From: Phascolarctobacterium sp.
Lineage (GTDB): Bacteria > Bacillota > Negativicutes > Acidaminococcales > Acidaminococcaceae
Length of the DNA: 64,000 nt
Direction of reading: 5' to 3'
Assembly (NCBI RefSeq): GCF_045124115.1
Contig: NZ_JBGVLF010000041.1
Coordinates: 5,137-69,136 of the forward strand
In this document: piece after piece, positions 10,442-62,777 of the stretch
How positions within the stretch are numbered: the first letter of the stretch is position 1
Layout: the number at the start of each line of letters is the position of its first letter
Notes under the pieces: model-generated
Database searches by the model: none
Seen by the model: only the letters and a program-made list of their open reading frames with translations
What the model was told of the DNA's origin: nothing
Translations under genes and position numbers: made by a program

Positions 10442-11518
10442 ATGGAACGCAGAAAAACACGCCAGCTTAATGTAGGCGGCGTACTGATTGGCGGCGGTGC
10501 TCCCGTTGCTGTGCAATCCATGACCAATACCCATACGGATGATGCAGTTGCGACCTTGGCGCAGATCAAGCGCCTGGCGGACGCAGGCTGTGATATTATC
10601 CGTTGCGCTGTGCCCGATATGGCGGCAGCTGAAGGGTTAAAAACTATTTGCAAGGAAAGTCCTATTCCTGTTATTGCCGATATCCATTTTGATTACAAGC
10701 TGGCATTGGTTGCTATTGCAGCAGGCGTGGACGGCTTGCGTTTAAACCCAGGCAATATTGGTGGTGAAGAACGCGTGCGCGCGGTGGTAGAGGCTGCCCG
10801 TGAGCGCAATATTCCCATTCGTATTGGTGTTAACGCAGGTTCCCTGCCTAAGGATCTGCTAGAGAAATACGGCCATCCCACTGCGGAAGCATTGGTGGAG
10901 GCTGCTTGGCGCCATATCCATATTTTAGAGGATATGGATTATCGTAATATCAAGATTTCCTTGAAGGCGCACGATGTGCCTTTGACTTTGGCTGCCTACC
11001 GCCTTATGGCGTCTCAATGCGACTATCCGCTCCATGTGGGCATTACAGAAGCCGGCACTGTGAACAGCGGTATTATAAAATCAGCTGTGGGCATCGGTGC
11101 TTTGCTGGCAGAGGGCATTGGCGATACTATTCGCGTTTCGCTGACAGGCGACCCGGTCAACGAGGTCAAAGTTGCTTACGATATCTTGAAAGCCTTGGGC
11201 TTGCGTGAGCATGGACCTACTTTGATTAGCTGTCCTACTTGCGGACGTACCCGTATCAGCTTGGAGAAACTGGCGCTGGAGGTAGAACGCCGTTTGGCAG
11301 ATATTACGGAGCCTATTACTGTAGCTGTTATGGGCTGTGTGGTTAATGGACCCGGCGAAGCACGGGAGGCCGATGTGGGCCTTGCCGGAGGCATTGGCGA
11401 AGGCTTGATCTTCCGCAAGGGAGAGGTGCTGCGCAAAGTGCCGGAAGATCAATTGGTCAATGAACTCTTTGTTGAAATAGATAAAATTTTACTTGAAAGA
11501 AGTAAGAAGGCTCTTTAA
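10442..11518 (+). CDS. ispG: 4-hydroxy-3-methylbut-2-enyl diphosphate synthase
   Basis: VQSMTNT, SCPTCGR and GCVVNGPGE cysteine motifs. ATG 10442 lies 9 nt after GAGGTG; the track ORF starts at GTG 10430. Confidence 0.93.
   Translation: MERRKTRQLNVGGVLIGGGAPVAVQSMTNTHTDDAVATLAQIKRLADAGCDIIRCAVPDMAAAEGLKTICKESPIPVIADIHFDYKLALVAIAAGVDGLRLNPGNIGGEERVRAVVEAARERNIPIRIGVNAGSLPKDLLEKYGHPTAEALVEAAWRHIHILEDMDYRNIKISLKAHDVPLTLAAYRLMASQCDYPLHVGITEAGTVNSGIIKSAVGIGALLAEGIGDTIRVSLTGDPVNEVKVAYDILKALGLREHGPTLISCPTCGRTRISLEKLALEVERRLADITEPITVAVMGCVVNGPGEAREADVGLAGGIGEGLIFRKGEVLRKVPEDQLVNELFVEIDKILLERSKKAL
11481..11502 (+). repeat. 22-bp direct repeat, left copy (inside the ispG 3' end)
   Basis: ATAAAATTTTACTTGAAAGAAG is identical to 15231-15252. 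Confidence 0.9.
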
Positions 11519-11539
11519 CTGTTGTGAAAACAAAACGAA

Positions 11540-11578
11540 TAGACCGCCAAAGCGTAAGCTGAGACGGTCTAAGTTTTT
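11540..11578 (+). terminator. Intrinsic terminator after ispG
   Basis: TAGACCG / CGGTCTA stem followed by AGTTTTT. Confidence 0.55.
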
Positions 11579-11581
11579 ATA

Positions 11582-11610
11582 TTGCAAACAAAGGTGTGTT
11601 ATGATATAAT
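11582..11610 (+). promoter_or_regulatory. Sigma-A-type promoter of the small-peptide transcript
   Basis: TTGCAA (11582-11587), 17-nt spacer, TATAAT (11605-11610). Confidence 0.6.
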
Positions 11611-11673
11611 TTTTCTAGCAAGAGATGGCTGGTGGTCGGTTTTCCTACTCCCTAAGAGTAGGGGGTGATTGCT

Positions 11674-11751
11674 ATGAGCATATTTGATATCCTTCTTGTG
11701 ATATTAGATATTTTAAAAATCGTAGTGACCATCTTCTCGTTTTATTTTTAA
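11674..11751 (+). CDS. 25-aa hydrophobic peptide, candidate type I toxin
   Basis: MSIFDILLVILDILKIVVTIFSFYF. SD GGGGGTGA lies 5 nt upstream and is partly buried in the CCTACTC/GAGTAGG hairpin (11644-11662). Confidence 0.45.
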   Translation: MSIFDILLVILDILKIVVTIFSFYF

Positions 11752-11842
11752 AATGAGAAAAACCGCCTAGCGGTTAGACGGCTTCCTTCACGTATTAAAA
11801 TCACAGAGGAGAGCCGACCTACCACAACCGGCTATCTCTTGC
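11752..11842 (-). ncRNA. Candidate ~90-nt antisense RNA (antitoxin) convergent with the peptide mRNA
   Basis: Bounded by the minus-strand promoter at 11848-11877. Ends at the minus-strand hairpin AACCGC-TAG-GCGGTT plus T-run (11752-11775). Its 5' 30 nt are complementary to plus-strand 11814-11843. Confidence 0.4.
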
Positions 11843-11847
11843 TTTTT

Positions 11848-11877
11848 ATTATACTATTACATGTGGCTTTTTGTCAA
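11848..11877 (-). promoter_or_regulatory. Consensus promoter on the minus strand
   Basis: Reverse complement reads TTGACA (11877-11872), 18-nt spacer, TATAAT (11853-11848). Confidence 0.6.
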
Positions 11878-12224
11878 TTTTTTTGCGTTCTTCCGTTAGT
11901 TTGGCGTTCTTGTTATGATACTTTTTCTCTAAGGCAAGAAAAAGTATCCCAAAAGTGCCTTTGCCGCTTGCAGGATTCCGTTGCCTAGATAACGCCCGCT
12001 GCATACGCCTCACTGCGCAAAGAGAGCAATTTAATATCTGCTTTTACAACACTTGTGGGCTGACGGGCGGTCGCTCCTGTCCGTTGCTCTTTGCCGTTCA
12101 CCACGTCATCGCAATATGGCTTTATCCGGCATCCGTTCCTGTCTGCGCGGCGCGTGCTAGCGGAAGTGTGTAGTAAAGTAAAGACTCGCAGCCTACGTTT
12201 CGCTTCGGCAGCTAGTCTACACCA

Positions 12225-12397
12225 CCCCTCAGTCTGCTTCGCTTCTACGAAGCTCGCAGCCAGCTCCCCTAAATAGGGGAGCCGAGACATTTTTTGCATT
12301 CTTCCCTATGGTTATTAGAAATTTTACGTACACTAGCGGAAAAATTATATAGTGCCTCGTTCCCCCTATTAGGGAGATGTCGCGAAGCGACAGAGGG
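12225..12397. repeat. Two inverted copies of a double-hairpin intergenic repeat
   Basis: Copy a 12225-12289 (reverse orientation) and copy b 12356-12397. Each has a CCCCT..AGGGG hairpin, a hairpin containing GCGAAGC (12236-12242 rc; 12382-12388), and a GAGGG tail. A third copy lies at 51561-51609. Confidence 0.7.
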
Positions 12398-12443
12398 TTT
12401 GAAAATTCTTTACATTTAGCTTGTGGCTGGTGGTTGTCGATGT

Positions 12444-12452
12444 TATAATAAA
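12444..12452 (+). promoter_or_regulatory. Extended -10 element upstream of the autotransporter
   Basis: TGTTATAAT. No convincing -35 element. Confidence 0.4.
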
Positions 12453-12556
12453 GTTGAAAGATGCTCGTGGTCAGCGATAGACATGGCGATAAGGGGCTGT
12501 TCATGTGGTGCGTGACTGAGAGCGTAATGTGTTCGAAAAAAAGGAGCGTGTTGTTT

Positions 12557-15056
12557 ATGTTGTTTACAAGGAAGATGAAGTTAACTAAATTGCAAAAGCA
12601 AGTGCTGGGTGGAATGCTGTGCGGAGCTGTGTGCATGGGCATTTTTAATCCGGGGGGGGGCAGAGGCTGCTTATGTAACAGCTAGCATGAAGGTTTTGTC
12701 CGGTAATGCGGAACGTGTTGACGATGAAACAGTTCTGATTGATAGTAATAGTAGCGTTAAGATTAATGCATCCGATGGTACTATAGAATTGAATAGAGGA
12801 GATGCTGTTTTAGGTTCTTGTAATGATGTGAAAATTACTATGAACGATGGTGAATTACAAGTTGTTGCCGGTGGTCTCAATGTTGATGGTGGCGATTCTG
12901 TAACTGGAAATAGCGTTGTAATAAATGGTGGCTCTGTAGGTGTGACAGTTGTCGGTGGTTGTGTATGGGAAGATGGTTCGGCTAATGAAAATAAGGTTAT
13001 AGTTACCAACGGTACAATTGGTATTGAAGAATATGGTTATGTTAGCGGTGGTTATGTGGACGTAGGTGATGATGGATCAGGCAACGCTGGCAAAAACGAA
13101 GTAGCAGTTAGCGGTGGCACGATTAATTGCAATGTTTATGGTGGTTGGATAGATGAGACTTATGTAAATGGTTCTGCCAATGAAAATAAAGTAACGATTA
13201 GTGGCGGTGTGATTGTTGGCAACGAATCTGAAGTGGAAATTTATGGTGGTTATGTAGTCGGAGAGGATGATGGGTACGGTAATACCGTAAATGGTTCTGC
13301 CGATGGCAATATTGTAACTATTAGTGGCGGAACAATTGGTGCTACTGAATCTGAAGTGGAAATTTATGGTGGCAGGGTATATGGTGATGGATTCGGAGAA
13401 GGTCTTATTGTAAATGGCTCTGCAAACGGAAATACTGTGACGATTAGCGGTGGAACAATTGGTGGCGACGAATCTTATGTAGATATTTTTGGTGGTTTTG
13501 CAAGTGGAACTGGTTCCGCCAATAACAATAAAGTGATGGTGAGCGGTGTCAATGTTGGCTCCGAAGGTGTTGTTGGTGGTGGATATGCATACGGAAATGG
13601 TTCTGCAAATGGAAATACAGTAACAATCAGCGGCGAAAACACAGGAATTAGTATAATTGTTGGCGGTTATTCTGAAGAAGGCAATGCTATTAATAATACC
13701 GTTAACCTTTACGCAAATGCTAAGTTTGCAACTCTTTTTGGCGGAATGACCGGCGAAGATGGGACTGGTGATGTTAAGACAGGTAACACTTTAAATGTTA
13801 GGGGTTCTAACTTAACCGTTAAAGGAATAGAGAACTTTGAAAACATCAACTTCTACGTTCCTAGCGATGCTAAAAATGGTGATACAGTTTTGACCGTTAA
13901 GGAAAATGTAAATATCCAAGATACTACCATTAATGCGGGCGTCCAAAAGGGTTCTGAATTAAGTAAGGGTGATAGTTTAACCTTATTAAAGAGTGAAAAA
14001 GAATTAACAGGTACTGCTGCTAGCTTTGGTAAAGTTACTGAAACCGATTTCATAGACTATGATATGAAAATTACCCAAGATGGTAACTCTCTTAAAGGTA
14101 CCATTACCTCTGGAGGCTCTACCAACGAAGTCTCCAAATCCCCTGTGGAAACTATGACTGCTAATTTGGCAATGATCAACATGGGTCTTGACCAAGTAGC
14201 AAGAACCGGTTTTAACAGCGCAGCTGCAGCCATCAAGAGCGAAACTGCACAAGGTGCGGATTCCAGTGATGCGGCAATCTTCGCTAATATTTCCGGTAGC
14301 AATGTAAAAGCAGAATCCGGCTCCCATATTGATATTGATGGCTGGAACTTCAACCTGGGCTTTGCCAAAGAAATCGAAAACAATAGTGGCAAACTGTTGG
14401 TAGCTCCCATTGTTGAATACGGTCATGGCGATTACGACTCCTATTTGGACAACGGAGTACACGCTGACGGTAACAGCAAATATTGGGGCGCAGGCCTGAT
14501 GGCTCGCCAAACTAACAATAATGGCTTCTACTACGAAGGCAGCATTATTGGCGGTAAGAGCGACAGCGATTACAGCTCCTCCGATATTGGTAGCGGTGTA
14601 AGCTACGACAGCGATGCCCTCTTTGTAGCAGCACATCTGGGTGCAGGCAAAGTAGTAGAGATTGACGATGCTAGCAACATCAACTACTATGGTAAATTCT
14701 TCTACACCCATTTGGGTGGTGACGACGTAACCTTGAGCAATGGCGCAGACTACAGTTTCGACAGCAGCGAATCCAAACGCATTATGCTGGGCAGCCGCTG
14801 GACTCGCAGCATCAACGCTAAGAACGGCCTCTACGCAGGTCTTGCATGGCAGTACGAATTTGATGCCGAAGCAAGAGCAACTGTTAAAGGCATAGCTGCT
14901 CCTTCTCCCAGTATGCAGGGTCACACCGGCATTATGGAACTGGGCTGGAAAGTACAGCCTAGCGATGCTCCCATGGACGTAGACCTTGGCTTCATGGGCT
15001 ACACAGGCAAAACCAAAGGCGTGAGCCTCAACCTCAACCTGAATTGGAAATTCTAA
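12557..15056 (+). CDS. Type Va autotransporter, reading frame broken at a G9 tract (phase-variable OFF state or homopolymer error)
   Basis: AAGGAG RBS lies 10 nt before ATG 12557. This opens signal peptide MLFTRKMKLTKLQKQVLGGMLCGAVCMGIFNPGG, which runs into G9 and stops at 12685. The passenger and beta-barrel are in another frame (track ORF 12609-15056), ending ...NLNLNWKF. G8 would fuse the two frames. Confidence 0.8.
12652..12660 (+). repeat. Homopolymeric G9 tract
   Basis: Read directly: c ggggggggg c. Confidence 0.95.
12960..13640 (+). repeat. Tandem ~120-bp (~40-aa) passenger-domain repeats
   Basis: Repeated NGSAN(E/G)N.VTISGG.IG..ES.V.I.GG units. A 26-bp exact repeat GAATCTGAAGTGGAAATTTATGGTGG occurs at 13224 and 13347. 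Confidence 0.8.
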
Positions 15057-15069
15057 CTACATAAAAGCG

Positions 15070-15099
15070 AACCGCCGTGGCGAATGCTGCGGCGGTTTT
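15070..15099 (+). terminator. Intrinsic terminator after the autotransporter
   Basis: AACCGCCG / CGGCGGTT stem followed by TTG. Confidence 0.7.
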
Positions 15100-15182
15100 G
15101 CATTTTCGTTACGAATTTAAAACAATTGGCACTAATCACAACAATATACGTGGCTGGGGGTCTAGTAGAAAAGCCGAATTTG

Positions 15183-15191
15183 TGGTATAAT
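15183..15191 (+). promoter_or_regulatory. Extended -10 element upstream of proS
   Basis: TGGTATAAT. No clear -35 element. Confidence 0.45.
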
Positions 15192-15230
15192 ACTGCAGAA
15201 AATAATTTTCTTTGTGCACATTGTTACAGT

Positions 15231-15252
15231 ATAAAATTTTACTTGAAAGAAG
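15231..15252 (+). repeat. 22-bp direct repeat, right copy (covers the proS RBS region)
   Basis: Identical to 11481-11502. Confidence 0.9.
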
Positions 15253-15263
15253 GTATCCCATTA

Positions 15264-16973
15264 ATGAGAGTTTCTAAAATGTATGCACCCACCCTGCGTG
15301 AGGTTCCGTCCGAGGCAGAGATTCCTAGCCATCAACTGTTGCTGCGCGCCGGTTTCATGCGTAAATCCACCAACGGCATGTACACCTATCTGCCTTTGGC
15401 TTGGCGCGTAATCAAAAAGATTGAAAATATTATTCGTGATGAAATGGATAAGAAGGGCGCACAAGAAATTATGATGCCCATTATGCAGCCTGCAGAAATT
15501 TGGGAAGAAAGCGGTCGTTGGGGTGCTTATGGCGCTGAAATGATTCGTTTGAAGGACCGTCATGGTCATGAATACTGCCTTGGCCCCACTCACGAAGAAA
15601 TGGTAACTACTGTTGTTAAGAGCGACGTGCGTTCCTATCGCCAACTGCCCTTGAACTTGTACCAAATCCAAGATAAATTCCGCGATGAACGCCGTCCTCG
15701 TTTCGGCCTCATGCGCAGCCGTGACTTCATCATGAAAGATGCTTATTCTTTCGACCGTGATGAAGCAGGTTTGGATGTATCTTATCAAGAAATGTACGAT
15801 GCATATACCAATATCTTCAACCGTTGCGGTCTGACCTTCCGCCCTGTAGAAGCAGATAGCGGTGCTATCGGCGGCAACGGCAGCCATGAATTCATGGTTC
15901 TGGCTGAAAGTGGTGAAGCAGAAATCGTATACTGCCCCGAATGTGATTATGCAGCAGACGTAGAAAAAGCAGAACTGCATACCATCGAAGCAACAGAAGA
16001 AGCAGAACTGCCCATGGAAAAGGTGCTGACACCCAACTGCAAGACTATTGAAGATGTTTGCAAGTTCCTGAACGCTCCTGTAGAAAAATCCATGAAGGCT
16101 GTTGCTTTCCAAAGCGAAAAAGGCTTGATCCTGTGCTTTGTTCGCGGTGACCACGAAGTAAACGAAATTAAAGTAGTAAACACTGTTGGTGTTACCGAAG
16201 TAGAAATGGCTGAACCGGAACTGCTGGCAATGGCAGGTACTTTCGGCGGCTATATGGGTCCTGTAGGCTTGGATCCCAAGAAAGTTATCATTGTTGTTGA
16301 CCAAAGCGTAATGAAGATGCACAACATCTGCTGCGGTGCTAACGAAGAAGGCTACCACTTCATCAATGTTAACCCCGGCCGTGACTTTACTCCTACCTAT
16401 GTAGCAGATATCCGCCTGATGGCTGAAGGCGATCCCTGCCCGCACTGCGGCGCTCCTGTAAAGAAAGCACGTGGTATTGAAGTTGGCCAAGTATTCAAGC
16501 TGTTCACCAAATACAGCAAAGCCATGAAAGCTACCTTCTTGGACGAAAACGGCAAGGAACAACCTATGGTTATGGGTTGCTACGGTATCGGCGTTGGTCG
16601 TACTATGGCTGCATCCGTTGAACAAAACAACGATAAGGACGGCATGATTTGGCCTGCTGCTATTGCTCCCTACGAAGTTTTGGTTGTACCTGTAAACGTA
16701 AAAGACGAAGAATCCAATGCCAAGGCTGAAGCAATCTACAAAGAATTGCAAAACGCAGGCGTGGAAGTCGTTATCGACGACCGTAAAGAACGCCCCGGCG
16801 TTAAATTTAAAGATGCTGATTTGATTGGCTATCCTCTGCGTGTAGTTGTTGGTCCTAAGACTTTGACTACCGGTGAATTGGAAGTTAAAGTACGTCGCAA
16901 TGGCGAAGTACACATGCTGCCTTTGGATAGCGATTATGTAGGCACCATTAAAGAAATGCTGAAGAGTTTATAA
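15264..16973 (+). CDS. proS: Prolyl-tRNA synthetase (bacterial type)
   Basis: [15 protein letters not shown]... N-terminus. Motif 2 [25 protein letters not shown] and motif 3 GCYGIGVGR. The track ORF's 60-codon N-terminal extension has no homology-like content. Confidence 0.94.
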
Positions 16974-35221: not shown

Positions 35222-35282
35222 TTTGCAAATAAGAGCGCTGTAAAACGGGGTGCGGTGTTAGCAAAGAATAGGAGTGGATGTT

Positions 35283-37292
35283 ATGCAAAAAGTAATGTTT
35301 AAAGGTGCATTGTTAGCAGCAATGATGACAGGTTCTGTGTTGGGCAGTCAATGCGTTTGGGCAGCAGAGACAGTGGGAGAATTTACCCTCGATCCCATGG
35401 TTGTAACTGCATCCAGAATGGAGAAACGCGACTTGGATACACCTGCGGCAGTCGATGTTATTACTAGGGAACAAGTTGAACGCATTGGTGGTGCAAGTGC
35501 TTTTGAAGTATTGCGTCAATCTTTAGGCGTTAGTGTGACTAGCCAAGGTCCTAATGGTGTATCCTATGGCTCCATGACCAGTGAAGCTACGATTCGTGGT
35601 GTTGAACGCGGCACTTTGGTTTTGGTAGATGGTATGCCTCTTAACCAAGATGGCAAATACAATTTGGAAGACATTCCTGCGGAAATGATTGAAAAGATTG
35701 AGATTGTTCGCAGTGGTGGTTCCGTTCTCTACGGTAGTGAAGCTAGTGGCGGTGTTATCAACATTATTACTAAACGCGGACCTATTAATAAAGTAAAGAT
35801 TTCTGCAGGTAATTTGGGGAGAGAAAACTATAGCTTAGTAGTTGGTGACAAAAATTTCGGCGCAACTGCTTATTATGAAAATCGCGGCACTATAAATCGC
35901 ACATCTACTACAGCTCTTTCCGGTATGGCAGGGAAAAAGACAAAAAAATACTATCGCTATGACAGCGGTGATCGTAAAGGTATTCGCTGGCACTATGATA
36001 TTAATGATAAGCTGACTTTTACTCATCAATATTCAGAGAATGAAAACGTCGTTTCTCAGATTAATCCCGAAGGCAAATACAAAAATGGACTGTATCAACG
36101 CAATACTTATATTGATACGGACAATAACTTCGCATTGAATCTGGACGATAAGCAAGGATTTAAGGCTCATTTATCCTATGGCACCCAAGAAAAGCAATAT
36201 GATAAAGATAGCTATAGTGCAAAAGGGGCTCTGACAAGGCAAACACCTTATAGTTGGCGCAAGGGACACAACACCAATCTTGATCTGCAAAAGAGCTTTA
36301 ATATGGGCACTAACAAGCTTTTGGTGGGTGCTACTTATAAGAATGAAAATATGGATATTCTTGGCGACAAAATAGGCACTACTGAATCCGTTAAAGGTCG
36401 TGCAACTTATGATCGCGATATATATTCTGTATATGCATCTTATGATTGGGCGCTTACGGATAAAGATAATCTTATTTTTAATGCTCGCGAGACTTGGGCA
36501 AAAAATTGCAACGCTGATTACCAAACCTTTAACTTTGATTCTGAACAAAAGGACATGAATCAATTTACGCCGGAGGTACAATATATCAAAAAATTGACGG
36601 AAGATAGCTCCGTATACGCTAAATTTGGTAAATCCTTCCGCCTGCCCGATTTGACCCGTATTTATGGTAGTGGCAATATTCGTCCGCAAATGGAGCTTTA
36701 TCCTGAAAAAGGCACGCATTATGAATTAGGCTACAAGTTAAACGAAAACAATAGAGCGTGGCGTTTAGCTTTGTATAAGTATGATATTGAAGACACCATT
36801 ACTAAAGTGGCGGGTACTTCTGCTGCTGAAGGTAATTTGGAATATACTAACGTTGATACTAAAAGTGTAGGTGTGGAATTGTCCTGCGATATCCAGCATA
36901 GTGATTTAGTTAGCAGCTCTTGGGGAGTTTCTTACTCTAATCCTGAAAAGCGTACCGATGCAGGTCATTTTGAAGATTATGGCAATAGATTGCAATTAAC
37001 TGGTTCTGTAGATTATCACGAAGAAAAATTTGGGGCTTCTGCAGTCTTTAACTACCTTGGTAAACGACTTGATGATGATGTGGATGCTTATGCTGGCAAA
37101 AAGGTTAAGCCTGCACTGTATACTGATGTGCATTTCTCTTATGCTCCGGAAAAAAACCACAAGGTATTCCTGCATGTAAATAATATCTTTGATCGTGATG
37201 ATTTTACTACTAATACCTCTCCCAGCGACGAGCATCTTGCTTATTTGTCCGTCGGTCGCAACTTTATGCTTGGCTATGAATACAGCTTCTGA
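35283..37292 (+). CDS. btuB: TonB-dependent receptor, BtuB-like (cobalamin/corrinoid uptake inferred from the riboswitch)
   Basis: Signal peptide, plug DPMVVTASRMEKRDLDTPAAVDVIT, C-terminal FMLGYEYSF. ATG lies 8 nt after AGGAG. Confidence 0.82.
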   Translation: MQKVMFKGALLAAMMTGSVLGSQCVWAAETVGEFTLDPMVVTASRMEKRDLDTPAAVDVITREQVERIGGASAFEVLRQSLGVSVTSQGPNGVSYGSMTSEATIRGVERGTLVLVDGMPLNQDGKYNLEDIPAEMIEKIEIVRSGGSVLYGSEASGGVINIITKRGPINKVKISAGNLGRENYSLVVGDKNFGATAYYENRGTINRTSTTALSGMAGKKTKKYYRYDSGDRKGIRWHYDINDKLTFTHQYSENENVVSQINPEGKYKNGLYQRNTYIDTDNNFALNLDDKQGFKAHLSYGTQEKQYDKDSYSAKGALTRQTPYSWRKGHNTNLDLQKSFNMGTNKLLVGATYKNENMDILGDKIGTTESVKGRATYDRDIYSVYASYDWALTDKDNLIFNARETWAKNCNADYQTFNFDSEQKDMNQFTPEVQYIKKLTEDSSVYAKFGKSFRLPDLTRIYGSGNIRPQMELYPEKGTHYELGYKLNENNRAWRLALYKYDIEDTITKVAGTSAAEGNLEYTNVDTKSVGVELSCDIQHSDLVSSSWGVSYSNPEKRTDAGHFEDYGNRLQLTGSVDYHEEKFGASAVFNYLGKRLDDDVDAYAGKKVKPALYTDVHFSYAPEKNHKVFLHVNNIFDRDDFTTNTSPSDEHLAYLSVGRNFMLGYEYSF

Positions 37293-53452: not shown

Positions 53453-54079
53453 ATGAGCAATTTTTGCGGCAAGCTAGCGAAGACGGTGTTTGATTACAGT
53501 TTAACGGCAGTAGGTACGGTGTGTATCAGTCCGCTGTTAGTTTATATTGCCTATAGAATAAAAAAAGAGGATCCGGGTCCGGTGTTTTTTGCTCATGAGC
53601 GTATTGGCAAGGATGGCAAGCCTTTTCCTTGCTATAAGTTCCGGAGCATGGTTGTAAATTCCCAGGAGATGCTAGAAAAATATTTGGCAGAAAATTCCGA
53701 CGCCCGTGCGGAGTGGGAACGTGATTTCAAGTTGAAGGATGATCCGCGGATTACGCCTATTGGCAAGGTGTTGCGCAGGACAAGTTTGGATGAGCTGCCG
53801 CAGATTTTTAATGTGCTGCGGGGCGAGATGAGCCTTGTAGGTCCGCGTCCTGTGATTCAGGAGGAGTTGGACAAGTATTATGGCGAGACTGCGAAGCTGT
53901 ACGCCAGTGTGAAGCCTGGGATTACGGGTTTGTGGCAGGTGAGCGGACGCAGCGATTTGGGGTATGACCAGCGTGTGGCGCTGGATGCGGAGTATATCAA
54001 GCACAGAAGCTTTTGGGGCGATGTGGTGATTTTGTGGAAGACTATTGGCGTGGTGCTGATGAAGAAAGGTGCGTATTAA
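53453..54079 (+). CDS. Initiating undecaprenyl-phosphate sugar phosphotransferase (small PGT, bacterial sugar transferase family)
   Basis: SLDELPQIFNVLRGEMSLVGPRP and KPGITGLWQVSGRS. Confidence 0.9.
   Translation: MSNFCGKLAKTVFDYSLTAVGTVCISPLLVYIAYRIKKEDPGPVFFAHERIGKDGKPFPCYKFRSMVVNSQEMLEKYLAENSDARAEWERDFKLKDDPRITPIGKVLRRTSLDELPQIFNVLRGEMSLVGPRPVIQEELDKYYGETAKLYASVKPGITGLWQVSGRSDLGYDQRVALDAEYIKHRSFWGDVVILWKTIGVVLMKKGAY
54055..54077 (+). repeat. 23-bp direct repeat, left copy (3' end of the sugar transferase gene)
   Basis: GCTGATGAAGAAAGGTGCGTATT is identical to 56184-56206. Confidence 0.9.
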
Positions 54080-54180
54080 ATATATGCACAATGAACTTGT
54101 AGAGTTTTTCAACTTTTAAAAAGATCTTTGGAGTCGTGTAATGACTTTGTTTCTAGCAGAAAGGTGGAAATGATGCCTGT

Positions 54181-56151
54181 ATGTGTTCTTGTTCTAATAG
54201 TGAAATCATAGACATTCTAGACAGATATTTTGATATTAATGACACTGACTATGCTGTACTGATAGATGGTAAATGGGGTACCGGTAAAACATATTTTGCT
54301 AAAAACACACTGCGAGCACACATTTATTCTAAGTATATAACTGACACAAAGAGGTTTAAGGAAGTAATTTATATATCTTTATTCTCTTGTGAATCCGTAG
54401 ATAAACTGTATGACAATATTATTGGTCAAACATTTTTAGGAAATCTAGAAAATAAAAGCAGAGATGTTTATCAAACTGAAACAGAAAAACCGCTTGAGAA
54501 AAGAGGCTTTTGTAATGTAAACGGGATTTCTTCCATTGTTAAAGCAATGGGTGCTGTAACTGATTTACTTGGTGAAAATAAAAAAGAGTTAATTAGGAAC
54601 GTCGCTAAGGATACGATTATTAATTACGAAAATTACGTTTATGTTTTGGACGATTTAGAGCGTTCAAAAATCCCTCTTGAAGAAATTTTGGGATTTATAG
54701 ATTTTCTTGCAGATCAGAATCATGCGAAGGTTATAGTTTTAGCTAATGAAAGTGAATTAAAGAGTAAAAATCATCAAGAAGAAGTAAAAGAGAAACCTGC
54801 TGATAAGATAGATACTTCCCCAAAGGGAAGGGATGAAAGATTGGTTGATGATGCTTGCTCTGATATTGTAGACGATGTTGCTAATGTTGAATACTATAAA
54901 TTTAAAGAAAAGGTTATAGGGGTTACAGTAACTTTTGAAAATGATTTTGCTACTCTTTATGACATATTCATCAATGGCAAAGACGAAGAAGTGAAAGAAG
55001 TATTGGCAAGTAATAAGGACTGTATTCTTGATGTATTCCGGATGTGCCAATGTAGTAATTTACGAACATTGTCTTTTACGTTGAATACTTTCTGTCATAT
55101 ATATCACGATATAAAGGATTCTTTTAGTCGCTTAGTTGGTTCAAGAGAAGTTAGTTTTAAGTCCGTTATATGTGTAATACTTGTCGATTTGGCTTTTAAT
55201 TCCATATTAGTCAAAGATAAGAGAAAGAAACCCAATTTTAAGGATGATAGCATAAAAATGGAATTTCCTATAGGTGCGTATTACAGAACCATAGGAATAA
55301 AAGCATATAACCCTTTTGAAGGTAGAACTATGTATAAATTTGTAGATAACTATATACGTAGTTTTAAACTTAATAAAAATGATCTTGATCAAGCTGTGGA
55401 AGACTTCATTGTGCAATGTGAATTAAAAGCTCAGTGGGTGTTTGATACTATTGAACAAGCTCATTTTTCTGATGAAGAAACCTGCAAAGAATTATTAGAT
55501 GCTGTTGTACAGAAATTAGAAAAAGATGAAATCAACATCAAGCTTTACGCCAAAATTGTTACTAATATTTTTACTTTAGCTGCAATATTGGAAAATGATG
55601 ATTTAGTTACACGTACCAAAGCTGCAATGAAGCACAATATCTTACGTCATTTTTCTGAATACAGAGATGGTGATTGGCATGTTTTTAGTGAGAATGGTAA
55701 AGACGCAGTGGTTTTCATCGAAGAACTGGAAGAATATATAAGAGTGCTGGTGGTTAATTCAAAAAAGGAAGAGTATAGATTAATCTACCAAAAGACTGAT
55801 GTAGAGTTGGTCGATTATTTGCGAAAGCGTGCAAGTGATGCTCAATATGGCATACACGATTATATCAAAGTACTTTGCTCGCTGCCCCTAAAACAGTTTG
55901 TCGCTAGAATAAGGAAGATGTCTATACGAGACTTGTTTGAGTTATCAAGTACTGTGAGTTCTTTTGCGTATTACTTTAATACGCTTAATGATTACACTGA
56001 TGATGATTATGAGTACTTAGTAGTTCTTAAGGCTGAAATAGATAAAATAGAGCAGGATAGGGATGAGGATAAAATGCGTAGGTTCCACTGTGAACTATTT
56101 AGCAAAAATCTTGAAGAACTGCTTCAAAAAATGGCTAAAGCGACCAATTAA
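54181..56151 (+). CDS. KAP-family-like P-loop NTPase (soluble form)
   Basis: Walker A DGKWGTGKTYF and Walker B-like VYVLDDLERS. Long alpha-helical C-terminal region with no obvious TM insert. Visibly AT-rich. Confidence 0.65.
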   Translation: MCSCSNSEIIDILDRYFDINDTDYAVLIDGKWGTGKTYFAKNTLRAHIYSKYITDTKRFKEVIYISLFSCESVDKLYDNIIGQTFLGNLENKSRDVYQTETEKPLEKRGFCNVNGISSIVKAMGAVTDLLGENKKELIRNVAKDTIINYENYVYVLDDLERSKIPLEEILGFIDFLADQNHAKVIVLANESELKSKNHQEEVKEKPADKIDTSPKGRDERLVDDACSDIVDDVANVEYYKFKEKVIGVTVTFENDFATLYDIFINGKDEEVKEVLASNKDCILDVFRMCQCSNLRTLSFTLNTFCHIYHDIKDSFSRLVGSREVSFKSVICVILVDLAFNSILVKDKRKKPNFKDDSIKMEFPIGAYYRTIGIKAYNPFEGRTMYKFVDNYIRSFKLNKNDLDQAVEDFIVQCELKAQWVFDTIEQAHFSDEETCKELLDAVVQKLEKDEINIKLYAKIVTNIFTLAAILENDDLVTRTKAAMKHNILRHFSEYRDGDWHVFSENGKDAVVFIEELEEYIRVLVVNSKKEEYRLIYQKTDVELVDYLRKRASDAQYGIHDYIKVLCSLPLKQFVARIRKMSIRDLFELSSTVSSFAYYFNTLNDYTDDDYEYLVVLKAEIDKIEQDRDEDKMRRFHCELFSKNLEELLQKMAKATN

Positions 56152-56183
56152 AATAAAATGAGAAACTGTTATTGTTTTTTGAA

Positions 56184-56206
56184 GCTGATGAAGAAAGGTG
56201 CGTATT
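56184..56206 (+). repeat. 23-bp direct repeat, right copy
   Basis: Identical to 54055-54077. Reads LMKKGAY then a stop (TGA here, TAA in the left copy). Confidence 0.9.
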
Positions 56207-56234
56207 GAAAAGATTTTTAAGGAGAATATAGATT

Positions 56235-56450
56235 ATGGGAACAATCTTTGTCAAATATAATCAGAAAGAAAATATTTGGGAAGTTTATGGACCGGATGAT
56301 AGGTGGGTTGATTCTGTAAAAGAAAAAAGATACGCATTAGTAGAAGCTAATAAGATAAAAAATAGCAATCAGTTATGCCAAATATTAGTGATTGACGAAG
56401 TTGGCGAAATTCATACATGTGGTGCTGACAAAAAAGATGATTTGAAATAG
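56235..56450 (+). CDS. Small hypothetical protein, possibly DUF2188-like
   Basis: 71 aa. AAGGAG RBS lies upstream. W.V.G......KE.A...A pattern, by eye only. Confidence 0.35.
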   Translation: MGTIFVKYNQKENIWEVYGPDDRWVDSVKEKRYALVEANKIKNSNQLCQILVIDEVGEIHTCGADKKDDLK

Positions 56451-56452
56451 GT

Positions 56453-57256
56453 ATGGTGCGAATGGAAAAATATGAGTTTAGAGAAGGATTAGTTTCTATT
56501 ATTATGCCGGCATATAATGCTAGTAAATATATTGAAGTAGCAATACGAAGTGTTCTCGAACAATCATTTGAAAATTGGGAGTTATTGGTTATCAATGATT
56601 GTTCTACAGATAATACTGCGGAGTTGGTAAAGAAATATGAAGCACTTGATTCTAGGATTAGACTAGTTAATTTTGAGACTAATCAAGGCGTTGCATCTGC
56701 TAGAAATCATGGCCTGAATATTGCTGCCGGCGAGTATGTTGCGTTTCTTGATAGTGATGATGTATGGGAGAAAAATAAGCTAGAAAAACAGATTTCTTTT
56801 ATAAAAATCCAGAAGGCTGATATGGTATGCACTGCGTACTCCATGATTAATGGCTCTGGTGACATTATAAAAAATAGAAGCGTACCTAAGGTGTTGACTT
56901 ATGATGACCTGTTAAAGGAGAACGTCGTGATTTTTTCATCAACGCTTTTTTTACATAATGCTATAGAAAACTTAAAGTTTAGTAAAGAATGGTTTCATGA
57001 AGATTATATTTTCCTGCTAGATTTTCTTAGAAGTAATCACAGCATTGCTGGGCTAAATGATGTGTTAATGAAATACCGTATTCAGAATCAAGGGCGATCT
57101 TTTAATAAGATAAATGCTGCGAAAAATAGATGGCTTATATACAGACGTTATCTGAAACTTGGTATTATAAAAAGCTTATGGTATTTTAGTTCTTACACTG
57201 TTCGTGGCATTATTAAATATAAAATAGTTTTATGGAGTTATAGTACTTTTCTGTAG
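56453..57256 (+). CDS. Family 2 glycosyltransferase
   Basis: VSIIMPAYNASKYI, NDCSTDNT, AFLDSDD. Confidence 0.87.
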   Translation: MVRMEKYEFREGLVSIIMPAYNASKYIEVAIRSVLEQSFENWELLVINDCSTDNTAELVKKYEALDSRIRLVNFETNQGVASARNHGLNIAAGEYVAFLDSDDVWEKNKLEKQISFIKIQKADMVCTAYSMINGSGDIIKNRSVPKVLTYDDLLKENVVIFSSTLFLHNAIENLKFSKEWFHEDYIFLLDFLRSNHSIAGLNDVLMKYRIQNQGRSFNKINAAKNRWLIYRRYLKLGIIKSLWYFSSYTVRGIIKYKIVLWSYSTFL

Positions 57257-57264
57257 GTGATAAT

Positions 57265-58359
57265 ATGAACAATCAGAAAAAAGTAGGAGTGATTTGCTTT
57301 AATGAGCGAGGGCTCGTACCATTTGTTGAAAATTATATCCAAGCTTTAGAAAGACATGATATTGATTATGAGTGTATTTTTTGGGATAGATATACTAATG
57401 CCGAAACTGAGAAAAAAGGAAACATATATACTCTTCATGCAGTGTGCAAGCCGGGAGGAAGTAAGCTTAGCAAGGTTTTGCCAATGTTTAAATATAAATG
57501 GATAGTTGAACGGATAATAAAAAAGGAAAAATACACGCATTTAATTATATTGACAACACAACCTGGATTTTTGCTTCATGGTTTACTTTGTAAGAATTAC
57601 AGCGGTAAATATATTTTTGACTATAGAGACTACACTTATGAACGATTTGAGTATTATAAAAATATAGTTAATGATTTGATAGATCAATCCTATTTTACAG
57701 CGGTATCTTCAAAAGGTTTTCTTAGATTTCTTGAACCGCATCAGAAAATGTATTTTTGTCATAATGTTACTAACCTAGAGAGCATTGTGTCAAACAAAAT
57801 AGATATAAAAGGAAAAGATAACATTACCATAGGATTTGTTGGTGGAGTAAGGTATTTCAGCGAGAACGCAAAATTCTTGCAATCTTTAGCTAACATAAAC
57901 AGATATACACTAACCTATGTCGGAAGACAAAATATTGATTGCGATTTGAAAAGTTATTGCAAGGAAAAGAAAATACTAAATACCATTTTTAAGGGGTCTT
58001 TTGATAATAACGAAAAACCTCGAATATATCAAACTATAGATATGATTAATTCAATCTATGGTAATCAAAGCCTTGAAGTAACTACCGCGTTACCTAACAG
58101 ACTTTATGATGCATTAATTTATAAAAAACCAATAATTACTTCTGCAGGAACCTATTTAGGTAAAATAGTTGTAGAAAACAAAGTTGGTATTAGTGTTGAT
58201 TTAGATAAAGATGATATACATGCTGTTATAGAGGATTATGTAAATAATTTTGATGCAAATATATTTAATGAAAATGCTGAGCGTTTGTTAAAACAGGTTC
58301 TTGATGAGCAACAGATGTATATCAACAAAATTGAAGAGTTCGTGAATTTAGAGGACTAA
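57265..58359 (+). CDS. Putative GT-B-fold glycosyltransferase / capsule biosynthesis protein
   Basis: 364 aa in locus context. The C-terminal half resembles the GT4 nucleotide-sugar-binding region. Weak call. Confidence 0.5.
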   Translation: MNNQKKVGVICFNERGLVPFVENYIQALERHDIDYECIFWDRYTNAETEKKGNIYTLHAVCKPGGSKLSKVLPMFKYKWIVERIIKKEKYTHLIILTTQPGFLLHGLLCKNYSGKYIFDYRDYTYERFEYYKNIVNDLIDQSYFTAVSSKGFLRFLEPHQKMYFCHNVTNLESIVSNKIDIKGKDNITIGFVGGVRYFSENAKFLQSLANINRYTLTYVGRQNIDCDLKSYCKEKKILNTIFKGSFDNNEKPRIYQTIDMINSIYGNQSLEVTTALPNRLYDALIYKKPIITSAGTYLGKIVVENKVGISVDLDKDDIHAVIEDYVNNFDANIFNENAERLLKQVLDEQQMYINKIEEFVNLED

Positions 58360-58365
58360 GTTGAT

Positions 58366-59460
58366 ATGAAAAAAATCTTACTTGTTTTTGGTACACGACC
58401 TGAAGCTATCAAGATGTGCCCCTTGGTAAACGAACTAAAGAAGCATAGTTGTTTTGCAGTCAAAGTGTGTGTTACTGGGCAACATAGGCAGATGTTGGAT
58501 CAAGTGCTAGAGGCTTTTGTTGTGCAACCAGATTATGACCTTGCCATTATGAAGGAACGTCAGACGTTATTTGATGTTACTACAGAGGTACTGAATAAGC
58601 TAAAGTCTATTTTGGAAGCGGAGAAACCTGATATTGTGCTTGTGCATGGAGATACGACTACTACTTTTGCTGCATCTTTAGCGTGTTTTTATTTGAATAT
58701 TGCTGTGGGGCATGTTGAAGCTGGTTTGCGCACTTATAATGTGGCTTCACCTTTTCCAGAAGAGTTCAATCGTCAAGCAGTTGGTATTGTAGCAAAGTAT
58801 AACTTCGCTCCTACGGAAACTGCCAAAGAGAACTTGCTAAGAGAGGGTAAGAATGCAGAGCAGATTTACGTTACCGGTAATACTGTGATTGATGCCTTAC
58901 AGACCACAGTAAAGGATTATTACCAGCATCCAGAATTGGAGTGGGCAAAGGGGAGTAGGCTTATCCTTTTGACTGCTCACAGACGTGAGAACTTGGGGGC
59001 GCCGATGCAATCTATGTTCCGCGCCATTAAGCGTATTGTTGATGAACATGAGGATGTAAAGGTTATTTACCCTATTCACATGAATCCTGTGGTACGCAGC
59101 ACTGCTGCAGAAATTTTCTGTGATGACGATAAGATCCATATTATAGAACCATTAGACGTTTTAGACTTTCATAATTTTATGGCGAGAGCACATCTTATTC
59201 TTACAGATAGTGGAGGAATACAAGAGGAAGCACCTAGTTTGGGTAAGCCAGTTCTTGTAATGCGCGATACTACTGAAAGACCGGAAGGAATTGCTGCAGG
59301 TACGTTGCGATTAGTTGGAACTAAAGAAGATGTTATATATAGAGAGTTCAAACGCTTGTTGGATGACGTACAAGCTTATGAACGAATGGCACATGCAGCT
59401 AATCCATATGGTGATGGCCATGCGTGCGAGAAAATAGCTGATATTTTGGAGAAGAGATAG
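58366..59460 (+). CDS. wecB: UDP-N-acetylglucosamine 2-epimerase (non-hydrolysing)
   Basis: FGTRPEAIKM, HVEAGLRT, DSGGIQEEAP. Confidence 0.92.
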   Translation: MKKILLVFGTRPEAIKMCPLVNELKKHSCFAVKVCVTGQHRQMLDQVLEAFVVQPDYDLAIMKERQTLFDVTTEVLNKLKSILEAEKPDIVLVHGDTTTTFAASLACFYLNIAVGHVEAGLRTYNVASPFPEEFNRQAVGIVAKYNFAPTETAKENLLREGKNAEQIYVTGNTVIDALQTTVKDYYQHPELEWAKGSRLILLTAHRRENLGAPMQSMFRAIKRIVDEHEDVKVIYPIHMNPVVRSTAAEIFCDDDKIHIIEPLDVLDFHNFMARAHLILTDSGGIQEEAPSLGKPVLVMRDTTERPEGIAAGTLRLVGTKEDVIYREFKRLLDDVQAYERMAHAANPYGDGHACEKIADILEKR

Positions 59461-59494
59461 GTATCTTTCTTGTTTTAAAACAGGAGTGAATTTG

Positions 59495-60667
<1,173 letters not shown>

Positions 60668-60669
60668 GA

Positions 60670-61737
60670 ATGAAAACATTGACCATTACCTTACATGATA
60701 CAGATAATTGCGGTTCATCCTTACAGTCTTTTGCTTTGCAGCATTTTTTATTAAGTCAAGGAATTGATAATGAATTAATAGATTACGTTCCTTCCTATAC
60801 TCAGAATAATGGTAGAGCATTTAAGACTTTTTTGAGAAAGGTTATATTTTTTAAGGCTTCTCGTGAACGAAAACAAAAATTTGCAGATTTTAAGAATCGT
60901 TTTCTTAAGCTTACTAGGAAAAAATATACTACATACGATGAATTAAAAAAAGGTGGGTTAAGTGCGGAGGTTTACATTACTGGTAGCGACCAGCTGTGGA
61001 ATAGTATGTATCTTTGCGGACAGGATCCAGCTTTTTATCTTGATTTTGTAAAAGAGGCTAAAAAGATAGGTTATGCTGTTAGTTTGGGTAGAGAAGATAT
61101 ACCTGAAGATAATCTTACAATCGTTCAAAAATATGCGCATGGTTTTTCTTGGCTCTCATTACGAGAATCTTGTGCTATTCATCAACTGAAAACTATTTTA
61201 CCAAATGTTACTATGGATTATGTTTGTGATCCCGTGCTGCTTAATGAGGTTCAGGAGTATGAGCCCATTAAATCTGATAGACTTATTAAAGATAAATATA
61301 TATTGGTATATTTGGCTCAAAAGTATGATAAGAAATCTTTGGATAAGGTTGTCGCTCATATTAAGGGAAATAAAGGTGTAAAGGTTGTATTTATTGGTAC
61401 ATACCTAAATCGCTGTACTTGTGATATCCATATTCGTGATGTTGCTCCTGGAGATTTTTTGAGCTTGATTGCTAATGCCGAATATATTATCTCTAATTCA
61501 TTCCATGCTACAGTTTTCTCAATAATGTATAATAAGCAATTTATTGCAGTTATGCCTCCTGAGAACAGCAGTCGTATAAAAGAAGTGTTGGCTGTTGCTG
61601 GTATAAAGGGACATGAATATTCTAAAGATATGAAAGTTCCATATATAAGTGAAGGTGAGTATGAGGAAGTAAATAAACGTATTGCAACTTTTAGAGAAAA
61701 GTCAAGAGAGTTATTGATGAATAATTTGGGTAAATAA
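60670..61737 (+). CDS. Polysaccharide pyruvyl transferase
   Basis: N-terminal DNCGSSLQSFALQ and GSDQLWN motifs typical of the PS_pyruv_trans family. Confidence 0.82.
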   Translation: MKTLTITLHDTDNCGSSLQSFALQHFLLSQGIDNELIDYVPSYTQNNGRAFKTFLRKVIFFKASRERKQKFADFKNRFLKLTRKKYTTYDELKKGGLSAEVYITGSDQLWNSMYLCGQDPAFYLDFVKEAKKIGYAVSLGREDIPEDNLTIVQKYAHGFSWLSLRESCAIHQLKTILPNVTMDYVCDPVLLNEVQEYEPIKSDRLIKDKYILVYLAQKYDKKSLDKVVAHIKGNKGVKVVFIGTYLNRCTCDIHIRDVAPGDFLSLIANAEYIISNSFHATVFSIMYNKQFIAVMPPENSSRIKEVLAVAGIKGHEYSKDMKVPYISEGEYEEVNKRIATFREKSRELLMNNLGK

Positions 61738-61770
61738 GTGGGGTAAAAAGTCAATTTTTGGAGAGTACGA

Positions 61771-62775
61771 ATGGATTCAATGAATAAAAACAGTTTTTTG
61801 GTTAGTATTGTTGTTCCAGTTTATAATGCTGAAAAATATATCACTAGATGTGTTGAGAGCATAGTTAATCAGACATATGTAAATATAGAAATACTACTCA
61901 TTGATGATGGTAGCACTGATAATGGCGGCTGCATTTGCGATACTCTTGCTAAAGATGATGTTAGAATAAGGGTCATTCACAAATCTAATGGTGGAGTTAG
62001 TAGTGCTAGAAACGTGGGAATAGAACTATGTACTGGTGATTTAGTGATGTTTGTAGATGCTGATGATACTATTGAAGATTGTTGTGTTGAGGAGTTATGT
62101 AAACCATTTTTTTCTAACAACAATGATATAGATATTTCCATATGTGGTTATAACGAATTTTTTCAAAAGAATAATTCTGTGAAAACATGGCTTCCAGTTG
62201 AGTTAAAAGGAGATATAAAGGTTGACTATTATGCATTAAGGAGTTATATATCTTCTCCTTGGGGAATCGCATACAGGAAATCCATAATATTAGAAAATAA
62301 AGTTCGCTTTCCTAACATGCGATTCGGAGAAGATCAATTTTTCAATTTCATGTATTTATATTGGGGTTATAGGTTTTGCTTTATAAACAAGGCTCTTTAC
62401 AATTATTGGCACCATGACAATGAAAGTCTCAGTACTAAACGAGAGTTGAAAAGCTATGAAGGTTTTCTCGAACGTCTGAAATTTGAAAAGAAACTTTTAA
62501 AAAAATTGGAAATTAAACGTGACGTAGATATATTATGTAATCATTTCGTTGTAGGATTAGCACATTTTGCTGTTCTTGATGATGCCAAAAATGATTATGA
62601 TAGTTTTAATTTTAGAGTGCAGCAAGGTATTGGAGTTTTAGATGGTAAGTTTGGAGCAGTTTCATTAAAAGCAAATGCAATGGCTTCACTGATCAAGTAC
62701 AAACTCACATTTTTAGTATATATGTTGTATGTTGGTCGGTTTTACTTAAATAAGTATTTTAGGAGTAAAGGATAA
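61771..62775 (+). CDS. Family 2 glycosyltransferase
   Basis: VSIVVPVYNAEKYI, IDDGSTDN, FVDADD. Confidence 0.87.
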   Translation: MDSMNKNSFLVSIVVPVYNAEKYITRCVESIVNQTYVNIEILLIDDGSTDNGGCICDTLAKDDVRIRVIHKSNGGVSSARNVGIELCTGDLVMFVDADDTIEDCCVEELCKPFFSNNNDIDISICGYNEFFQKNNSVKTWLPVELKGDIKVDYYALRSYISSPWGIAYRKSIILENKVRFPNMRFGEDQFFNFMYLYWGYRFCFINKALYNYWHHDNESLSTKRELKSYEGFLERLKFEKKLLKKLEIKRDVDILCNHFVVGLAHFAVLDDAKNDYDSFNFRVQQGIGVLDGKFGAVSLKANAMASLIKYKLTFLVYMLYVGRFYLNKYFRSKG

Positions 62776-62777
62776 TT

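Follow-up and report, generated by a model that had tools for sequence, protein, structure and literature searches.

A long-distance interaction of the toxin mRNA's 5′ end with its 3′ end, together with hairpins that involve the Shine-Dalgarno (SD) sequence, has been documented for the type I toxin–antitoxin (TA) genes hok and aapA (PMC6733600). In the bsrG/SR4 pair, binding of SR4 promotes the decay of bsrG mRNA and remodels the SD helix (PMC3834814). In the Gram-positive layout recorded in T1TAdb, the antisense RNAs of Fst/RNAII and SprA1/SprA1AS lie on the 3′ side of the toxin gene and cover the untranslated region (UTR), not the open reading frame (ORF) (PMC8594479). Here, we describe a module at positions 11582–11877 of a 64,000-nucleotide stretch of Phascolarctobacterium sp. 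DNA (contig NZ_JBGVLF010000041.1; hereafter, the window), where a short predicted mRNA with an ORF for a 25-amino-acid hydrophobic peptide faces a predicted convergent antisense RNA. On balance, we lean towards reading it as a type I TA-like module carried on small accessory DNA, in which a locked toxin mRNA would be met by a convergent antisense RNA of ~90 nt directed at its 3′ fold-back arm. This is the best available reading of the anatomy, thermodynamics and statistics of the locus, which are reported below, and not an established one.

The putative toxin mRNA would be transcribed from a promoter at 11582–11610 of the plus strand, which consists of TTGCAA and TATAAT elements separated by 17 bp, with a TG extended -10 motif at 11602–11603. 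The promoter scores 10/12, and sites that combine this score with the TG motif number three in the 64 kb, the mRNA promoter included. With the start placed 7 nt past the -10 box and the end placed at the U-run behind the closing helix, the predicted transcript extends from 11617 to 11847 of the plus strand (231–232 nt). Its minimum free energy (MFE) is −97.8 kcal/mol, compared with −53.1 ± 4.3 kcal/mol for dinucleotide shuffles (z = −10.5), and 0 of 200 shuffles folded as low. In the MFE fold of 11617–11847, all 30 nucleotides of the 5′ arm (11617–11646, plus strand) are paired with the region around 11805–11843, the helix consisting of 17 bp, a 7-nt bulge and 13 further pairs, and being followed by UUUUU. 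The inverted repeat that forms the outer part of this helix (arms 11617–11636 and 11824–11843) was independently recovered by a repeat search. The 3′ arm with its UUUUU (11805–11847, plus strand) is likely the terminator of the mRNA and would also be the target of the 5′ end of the antisense RNA.

The SD sequence GGGGGTGA (11661–11669, plus strand) is overlapped by a CCTACTC/GAGTAGG hairpin (11644–11662); alternatively, UACUCCCUA can pair with UAGGGGGUG, also within 11644–11669 of the plus strand. Each of these two local hairpins is worth about −12 kcal/mol, both of them bury the SD, and one covers it entirely. A hairpin over the SD is predicted to have formed already in an 84-nt nascent RNA. 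In the predicted fold of the full-length mRNA, the SD has a probability of 0.14 of being unpaired and the AUG one of 0.01, and the AUG region pairs with codons ~17–21. SD occlusion in the toxin mRNA, a trait of the type I class, is therefore present in prediction. These elements had been proposed in an initial annotation made from the sequence alone. The promoter and the CCTACTC/GAGTAGG hairpin were found where that annotation had placed them, the former with the extended -10 motif in addition. Folding of the plus-strand RNA agreed with the predicted closing 5′/3′ helix, and the pairing, given there as 17 + 6 bp, is more extensive in the MFE fold.

The ORF (11674–11751, plus strand) comprises 25 codons and a stop codon (11749–11751) and encodes the candidate membrane toxin MSIFDILLVILDILKIVVTIFSFYF. 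The near-consensus SD stands 5 nt ahead of its start, and both elements lie where the initial annotation had placed them. The grand average of hydropathicity (GRAVY) of the peptide is 2.14. When the whole window was scanned for ATG-initiated ORFs of 15–50 amino acids with an SD core 4–10 nt upstream and a GRAVY of at least 2, this ORF was the sole one retrieved, compared with 0.03 in shuffled sequences. The second codon position is T in 18 of the 25 codons (p = 6e-5), the share of T in the transcript being 32%; in each of the other two frames, both of which are interrupted by stops, T occupies this position in 9/25. The hydrophobic moment of the peptide is 0.31, compared with 0.15 ± 0.07 for shuffled peptides (p ~ 0.02), and its polar residues (D5, D12, K15, T19 and S22) are gathered in a 100-degree arc of the helical wheel, forming one narrow polar stripe. 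The locus thus has the small (<60 amino acids) hydrophobic ORF with its own ribosome-binding site (RBS) that marks the type I class.

On the minus strand, a TTGACA-18-TATAAT promoter (11877–11848) matches the σ70 consensus at 12/12 positions. It is the only 12/12 match on both strands of the 64 kb, where block shuffles gave 0.06. The antisense (antitoxin) RNA predicted from it runs from 11843 to 11752 of the minus strand and is about 90–97 nt long. Its predicted end, at ~11752, lies one base past the stop codon of the ORF and coincides with a terminator-like hairpin and U-run (11786/11775–11752, minus strand; 12-pair and 6-pair versions). This terminator is one-directional, since the plus strand has no T-run there. 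The fold of the ~97-nt RNA has an energy of −36.1 kcal/mol (z = −4.3). Over ~90 nt, the 3′ fold-back arm included, the antisense RNA is perfectly complementary to the 3′ UTR of the mRNA; an antisense gene whose RNA is complementary to the toxin mRNA over an extended length, another trait of the type I class, is therefore present at the sequence level. The 5′ end of the antisense RNA, AGCAAGAGAUAGCCGGUUGU, differs from that of the mRNA, AGCAAGAGAUGGCUGGUGGU, at 3 of 20 positions. The predicted starts of both RNAs, each put 7 nt past the respective -10 element, fall 0–3 nt from the outer ends of the inverted repeat. The minus-strand promoter and terminator described in the initial annotation were thus recovered, as was an antisense 5′ end that is fully complementary to the 3′ arm and closely resembles the start of the mRNA (17/20 positions alike).

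Duplex energies were compared for the two partners of the 3′ arm. The duplex of the 5′ arm with the 3′ arm, which contains two G-U pairs, a mismatch and the bulge, has an energy of −50.7 kcal/mol, while the perfect duplex of the antisense RNA with the 3′ arm reaches −79 kcal/mol. The cofold of the mRNA with the antisense RNA has an energy of −225.6 kcal/mol, compared with −133.9 kcal/mol for the two RNAs apart. It thus follows that the antisense RNA is thermodynamically able to out-compete the mRNA 5′ end for the fold-back arm.

A mechanism can be proposed on this basis, for which we infer transcription of both RNAs, translation and toxicity of the peptide, involvement of RNase III and a stabilising role. 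As with hok or aapA mRNAs, the full-length mRNA would be stable, long-lived and inert in translation. The antisense RNA would displace the mRNA 5′ end from the 3′ arm, because its own duplex with that arm is perfect and the intramolecular helix is interrupted by a mismatch and a bulge and contains G-U pairs. The resulting ~90-bp duplex would be cut by RNase III, so that the mRNA would be destroyed, as in txpA/RatA and bsrG/SR4. Should the supply of antisense RNA end, for example upon insert loss or stress, the surviving mRNA might be processed or slowly translated; the released peptide would then enter the membrane, with arrest or death of the cell as the result, and the 3.75-kb insert that carries the module would be stabilised.

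Comparison with hok/sok of plasmid R1 and aapA/IsoA of Helicobacter reveals a likeness in an mRNA closed by a 5′-3′ interaction, an SD sequestered by local and distal elements, a small hydrophobic peptide and strong constitutive promoters on both sides (PMC6733600), the promoters of the module being predicted ones. Closure of the hok/aapA type is found here, with a 30-nt 5′ arm and the −50.7 kcal/mol duplex, as a mechanistic analogy and not as homology. In hok and aapA, the antisense RNA overlaps the 5′ leader or the first part of the ORF and binds only once 3′ processing has opened the mRNA; the antisense RNA of the module is instead located at the 3′ end, with complementarity to the fold-back arm itself. 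A 3′-processed, open-RBS form of the hok/aapA type was not found among the modelled 3′ truncations, all of which keep the SD and the AUG paired. Hok_Gef, a family of toxins of ~50 amino acids, searched in Pfam/NCBIfam at E ≤ 10 and Sok, which covers the mok/hok leader, searched in Rfam gave no match.

With txpA/RatA and bsrG/SR4 from the prophage region of Bacillus subtilis, the module shares a convergent antisense RNA over the 3′ end of the toxin mRNA, location on horizontally acquired DNA and a Firmicute lineage, and RNase III-dependent decay would be expected in it as well. In those two systems, part of the ORF is included in the overlap, and the toxins exceed the 25-amino-acid peptide in length and have no sequence relationship to it. 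In the module, the overlap stops right past the stop codon, and the peptide, at 25 amino acids, is net acidic. To our knowledge, a 5′-3′ fold-back of the mRNA has not been described for the txpA/RatA and bsrG/SR4 families. Convergent 3′ overlap, the geometry of the module, is the layout that T1TAdb gives for TxpA/RatA, BsrG/SR4, BsrE/SR5 and YonT (PMC8594479). None of these produced a match in Rfam, Pfam or NCBIfam, and the ORF of the module does not lie within the overlap.

The systems sprA1/SprA1AS of Staphylococcus aureus and fst/RNAII (par, pAD1) resemble the module in convergent transcription, in a 3′-side antisense RNA that covers only the UTR, in a very short hydrophobic peptide and in a structurally sequestered SD. 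SprA1AS pairs functionally at the SD region and RNAII at 5′ direct repeats, in both cases outside the overlap. The 3′-UTR-only overlap of the module fits SprA1/SprA1AS, and its best antisense:RBS duplex is a long, gapped and discontinuous interaction of −27.1 kcal/mol without a clear site. Unlike in fst/RNAII, the repeats of the module are inverted, so that the 5′ ends of its two RNAs are alike and not complementary, and the terminators are separate rather than a shared bidirectional one. The Fst models of Pfam/NCBIfam were not matched. TisB of E. coli is a short, mostly hydrophobic helix with few charged residues on one face and begins with M-x-h-h-D-I, as does the peptide, a likeness to be taken as a lead only. 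The layout of tisB/istR-1, with a divergent 5′ antitoxin and SOS control, differs from that of the module, and TisB models in Pfam/NCBIfam at E ≤ 10 gave no match.

By analogy, then, the module would work like a hybrid of hok/aapA and the Firmicute 3′-overlap systems while belonging to neither. More tentatively, and with considerable doubt on our part, it might represent an undescribed type I TA design that joins the fold-back lock of the hok/aapA type, known from Gram-negative families, to a Firmicute 3′-convergent antisense RNA. The antitoxin would mimic the mRNA 5′ end and invade the fold-back helix by strand displacement, and the 25-amino-acid acidic amphipathic peptide would found a new toxin family. 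It is conceivable, at the same low level of confidence, that in such a design one element would serve as the stabilising lock, the terminator stem and the antitoxin target.

Known families and relatives of the module were searched for in several ways. An Rfam scan of the whole window at gathering thresholds gave no match in the module, and at E ≤ 10 the region 11450–12650 returned noise only (best, rli28, E = 1.2, 24.5 bits against a threshold of 45). The region is thus given no known non-coding RNA family, an outcome the initial annotation had named as one that would speak against its proposal. The peptide, which that annotation could not place in any named family, had no significant match in Pfam, NCBIfam, PADLOC, PHROGs or PDB chains. 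Pfam and NCBIfam include models for Hok, Fst, Ldr, Ibs and TisB. Since neither family models nor Rfam gave a match, the module belongs to none of the named type I families.

Searches of plasmids by blastn and of plasmids and phages by tblastn found nothing relevant, though the BLAST low-complexity filter may mask the peptide. A degenerate peptide pattern, M-x-h-h-[DE]-h6-[DE]-h2-[KR]-h3, searched as DNA, retrieved chance matches only, of which two came from viral contigs and four from a set of 185,579 reference genomes. Because the pattern is strict, this null result is weak evidence of absence. The two viral matches (L007, L008) were rejected as AT-rich sequence in which the SD is weak or missing. 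The best-looking match, L010 (MSFLDILLFIIDLFKILFYFLNTF), was rejected because it coincides with the hairpin of a bidirectional terminator and runs into the end of a convergent gene. The remaining genome matches (L009, L011 and L012) were discarded as repetitive or evidently coding in another frame. A pattern of the two arms had no match in viral contigs, and its matches in metagenome contigs of the Joint Genome Institute (JGI) were rejected, since only the 12-nt termini are common and the repeat is unrelated. The latter (L037 877–1089, L038 332–563 and L039 569–786; JGI Ga0056126 and Ga0209458) are 213–232-bp elements with termini AGCAAGAGATAG...CTATCTCTTGCT, whose interiors and flanks are related to each other and unrelated to the module. 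They look like a dispersed terminal-inverted-repeat element of another organism, matched by chance.

Within the species, the module is 100% identical in 12 contigs from independent samples, including NCBI GCA_045129095.1 (contig JBGVIX010000109.1), and the differences between these contigs are confined to the flanks (a single-nucleotide polymorphism, or SNP, and poly-G lengths). A degenerate tandem second copy at 11911–11931 was considered and dismissed as not significant (alignment score 27, against 20.7 ± 2.0 and a maximum of 30 for shuffles). An inverted duplication of the whole promoter was likewise dismissed, the similarity of the spacers not being significant (p = 0.13).

Several points weigh against the type I reading. 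The promoter scores use the E. coli/B. subtilis consensus, which may not be that of the host. Termination of the mRNA relies on the long-range helix or on a weak local hairpin (−12.8 kcal/mol). The peptide has a net charge of −1 and lacks the cationic or polar tail that is common in type I toxins. The coding region is a long hairpin made of GATAT repeats, so RNA structure could account for part of the ORF sequence. Reference genomes, metagenome contigs, viral contigs, plasmids, phages and the rest of the 64-kb window yielded no homologue or paralogue of the module; this, together with the 12 identical copies, leaves the ORF without support from purifying selection and the helices without covariation. 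Related copies that conserve the ORF and the helices, a typical though not a defining trait of type I systems, were thus not found.

A further point concerns the RBS, which is closed in all modelled full-length, 3′-truncated, 5′-truncated and antisense-bound forms. The probability of being unpaired ranges from 0.14 to 0.26 for the SD and does not exceed 0.03 for the AUG, except in the 84-nt nascent RNA, where it is 0.35. A translation-competent form of the mRNA was looked for among the modelled truncations and the antisense-bound RNA, and none was found. It follows that no activation route is visible and that the ORF may never be translated. Judged by these models, the closed RBS is a real gap in the toxin model. 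As for the initial annotation of a type I TA-like module, its promoters, locked mRNA, SD-preceded peptide and convergent antisense RNA stand, and accessory DNA has been added to them; against this are the search for homologous loci, which found none, and the RBS, which is closed in all models.

The closed RBS, the extended GATAT-repeat hairpin and the lack of conservation evidence for coding would all be natural if the locus were a non-coding convergent RNA pair, acting as sense/antisense regulators or as a transcriptional-interference/insulator unit at the edge of the insert, with the ORF an untranslated by-product of an AU-rich hairpin. We consider this unlikely: an SD at ideal spacing, an ATG, the periodicity of T at the second codon position and the stops in the other frames would then be an odd coincidence, as would the single occurrence of an SD-preceded hydrophobic ORF in 64 kb against the 0.03 expected from shuffles, and no Rfam family was matched.

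The type I reading also draws on the genomic context. The module is carried by a 3.75-kb lineage-specific insertion (11503–15230) between ispG and proS, which is bounded by a direct repeat, ATAAAATTTTACTTGAAAGAAG, perfect over 22 bp. The left copy (11481–11502, plus strand) is in the 3′ end of ispG, and the right copy (15231–15252, plus strand), directly upstream of the proS start, retains the ancestral ispG-end/proS-start junction. In ten loci from relatives with 89–94% IspG identity, ispG overlaps proS directly, and the module is absent from all relatives compared (88–94% IspG identity); the IspG of the window is 93–94% identical to proteins of Phascolarctobacterium metagenome-assembled genomes. 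Within the insert, the ispG terminator comes first and the module second; then follow an ORF-poor stretch of 680 nt, an autotransporter gene that a poly-G tract splits, and a terminator. The insertion has no integrase, and no tRNA was found across 11000–16000. Location on insert-borne, recently acquired accessory DNA fits an addiction or stabilisation role and is no proof of one.

Given such surroundings, the 20–30-bp repeats could instead be the terminal inverted repeats of a non-autonomous element of ~227 bp, similar to a miniature inverted-repeat transposable element (MITE), or debris of the insertion, with the promoter and ORF features incidental or decayed. Imperfect inverted repeats around a core of ~190 bp, the position within an insert that was acquired recently, ends in direct repeats and has no integrase, and the autotransporter gene, out of frame in every sampled copy, are in line with this view. 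We nevertheless regard it as very improbable, since the 64 kb contain one copy, neither the 185,579 species genomes nor the JGI metagenomes, viral contigs, plasmids and phages yielded anything related, and no target-site duplication flanks the repeats. Moreover, promoters of 10/12 and 12/12 that face inward from immediately beyond the arms, and whose starts fall at the arm ends, are not expected for a MITE.

The presence of an outer-membrane autotransporter gene on the same insert bears on one more alternative, namely that the ORF encodes a small membrane protein that is not toxic and that might, for instance, modulate a transporter or a sensor and have some link to the autotransporter, with the cis-antisense RNA tuning its level. 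Many bacterial peptides of <50 amino acids are harmless partners of membrane proteins. The evidence from the ORF, its SD and its hydrophobicity applies equally to such a micro-protein, and the peptide is net-negative and without the cationic tail typical of pore-forming toxins. We think that this, too, is improbable: the extreme locking of the mRNA (z = −10.5, AUG 0.01) together with a consensus antisense promoter would be unusual for a benign product and is the mark of products that are not to be made. Furthermore, the paralogues of the autotransporter are only 41–44% identical, and at the two loci examined they directly follow coaE, without the module upstream.

If the type I reading is true, a new toxin family would be added, along with a compact design in which the antitoxin is aimed at an arm that both locks and terminates the toxin mRNA. 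It could also help to explain the chromosomal retention of an integrase-less insert with a putatively phase-variable surface protein. Type I TA systems are almost never annotated, and Phascolarctobacterium is an abundant gut commensal. Negativicutes are not mentioned in the T1TAdb paper (PMC8594479), and targeted literature searches found no type I TA report for Negativicutes or Phascolarctobacterium. Were the undescribed design considered above real, the module might be the first type I TA system in Negativicutes. Being small and self-contained, it is directly testable and might find further use as an RNA device. Should the module not be real, it cautions that near-perfect promoter, SD and fold signals can arise in orphan sequence that has no evolutionary support.

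Upstream of the module, the ispG terminator (11540–11578, plus strand) has a TAGACCGCC/GACGGTCTA stem followed by a T-run; to judge from its sequence, it shields the module from upstream transcription. The SNP mentioned above is at 11564 in this stem, where the window and JBGVIX010000109.1 have A and the contigs from the European Nucleotide Archive (ENA) have G; with G, the stem is perfect. No other substitution was seen in 11519–12200 among the 12 contigs; two of them (L002 and L003) also differ at 12231–12238, near their ends. The direct repeat ATAAAATTTTACTTGAAAGAAG (11481–11502) and the -10/start region of the module, ATATAATTTTTCTAGCAAGAGA (11604–11625), match at 16/22 positions, a likeness that may be AT-rich chance or a trace of the recombination of the insert.

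Downstream of the module, the 680-nt ORF-poor stretch (11880–12560) has no Rfam or Pfam match and a fold z of −1.5. It contains a perfect 12-bp hairpin at 11917–11948 and, on the minus strand, an ORF of 104 amino acids (11985–12299) that is called by gene callers and has no relative outside the species. When this ORF, which lies beside the module, was used as a search handle, only its own cluster was found among 5.8 billion proteins.

The autotransporter gene (12575–15056) is split by a poly-G tract at 12652–12660, so that the signal-peptide ORF (ATG 12575) is out of frame with the body that encodes the passenger and barrel (12687–15056). In the window the tract reads G9, and 10 other contigs have G7; one frame would be restored by G8. 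The gene looks like a case of slipped-strand phase variation that is OFF in every sampled copy. Homologues of this autotransporter-family ORF are annotated in Phascolarctobacterium.

Elsewhere in the window, the sole Rfam family above threshold is a cobalamin riboswitch, RF00174 (34950–35117, plus strand; 94.2 bits), which lies upstream of the ORF at 35274–37292. Finally, the region of ~54000–64000 has a G+C content of 0.29–0.38, compared with ~0.45–0.50 elsewhere, and contains a co-directional run of genes; it is possibly another acquired island, e.g., a surface-polysaccharide cluster.

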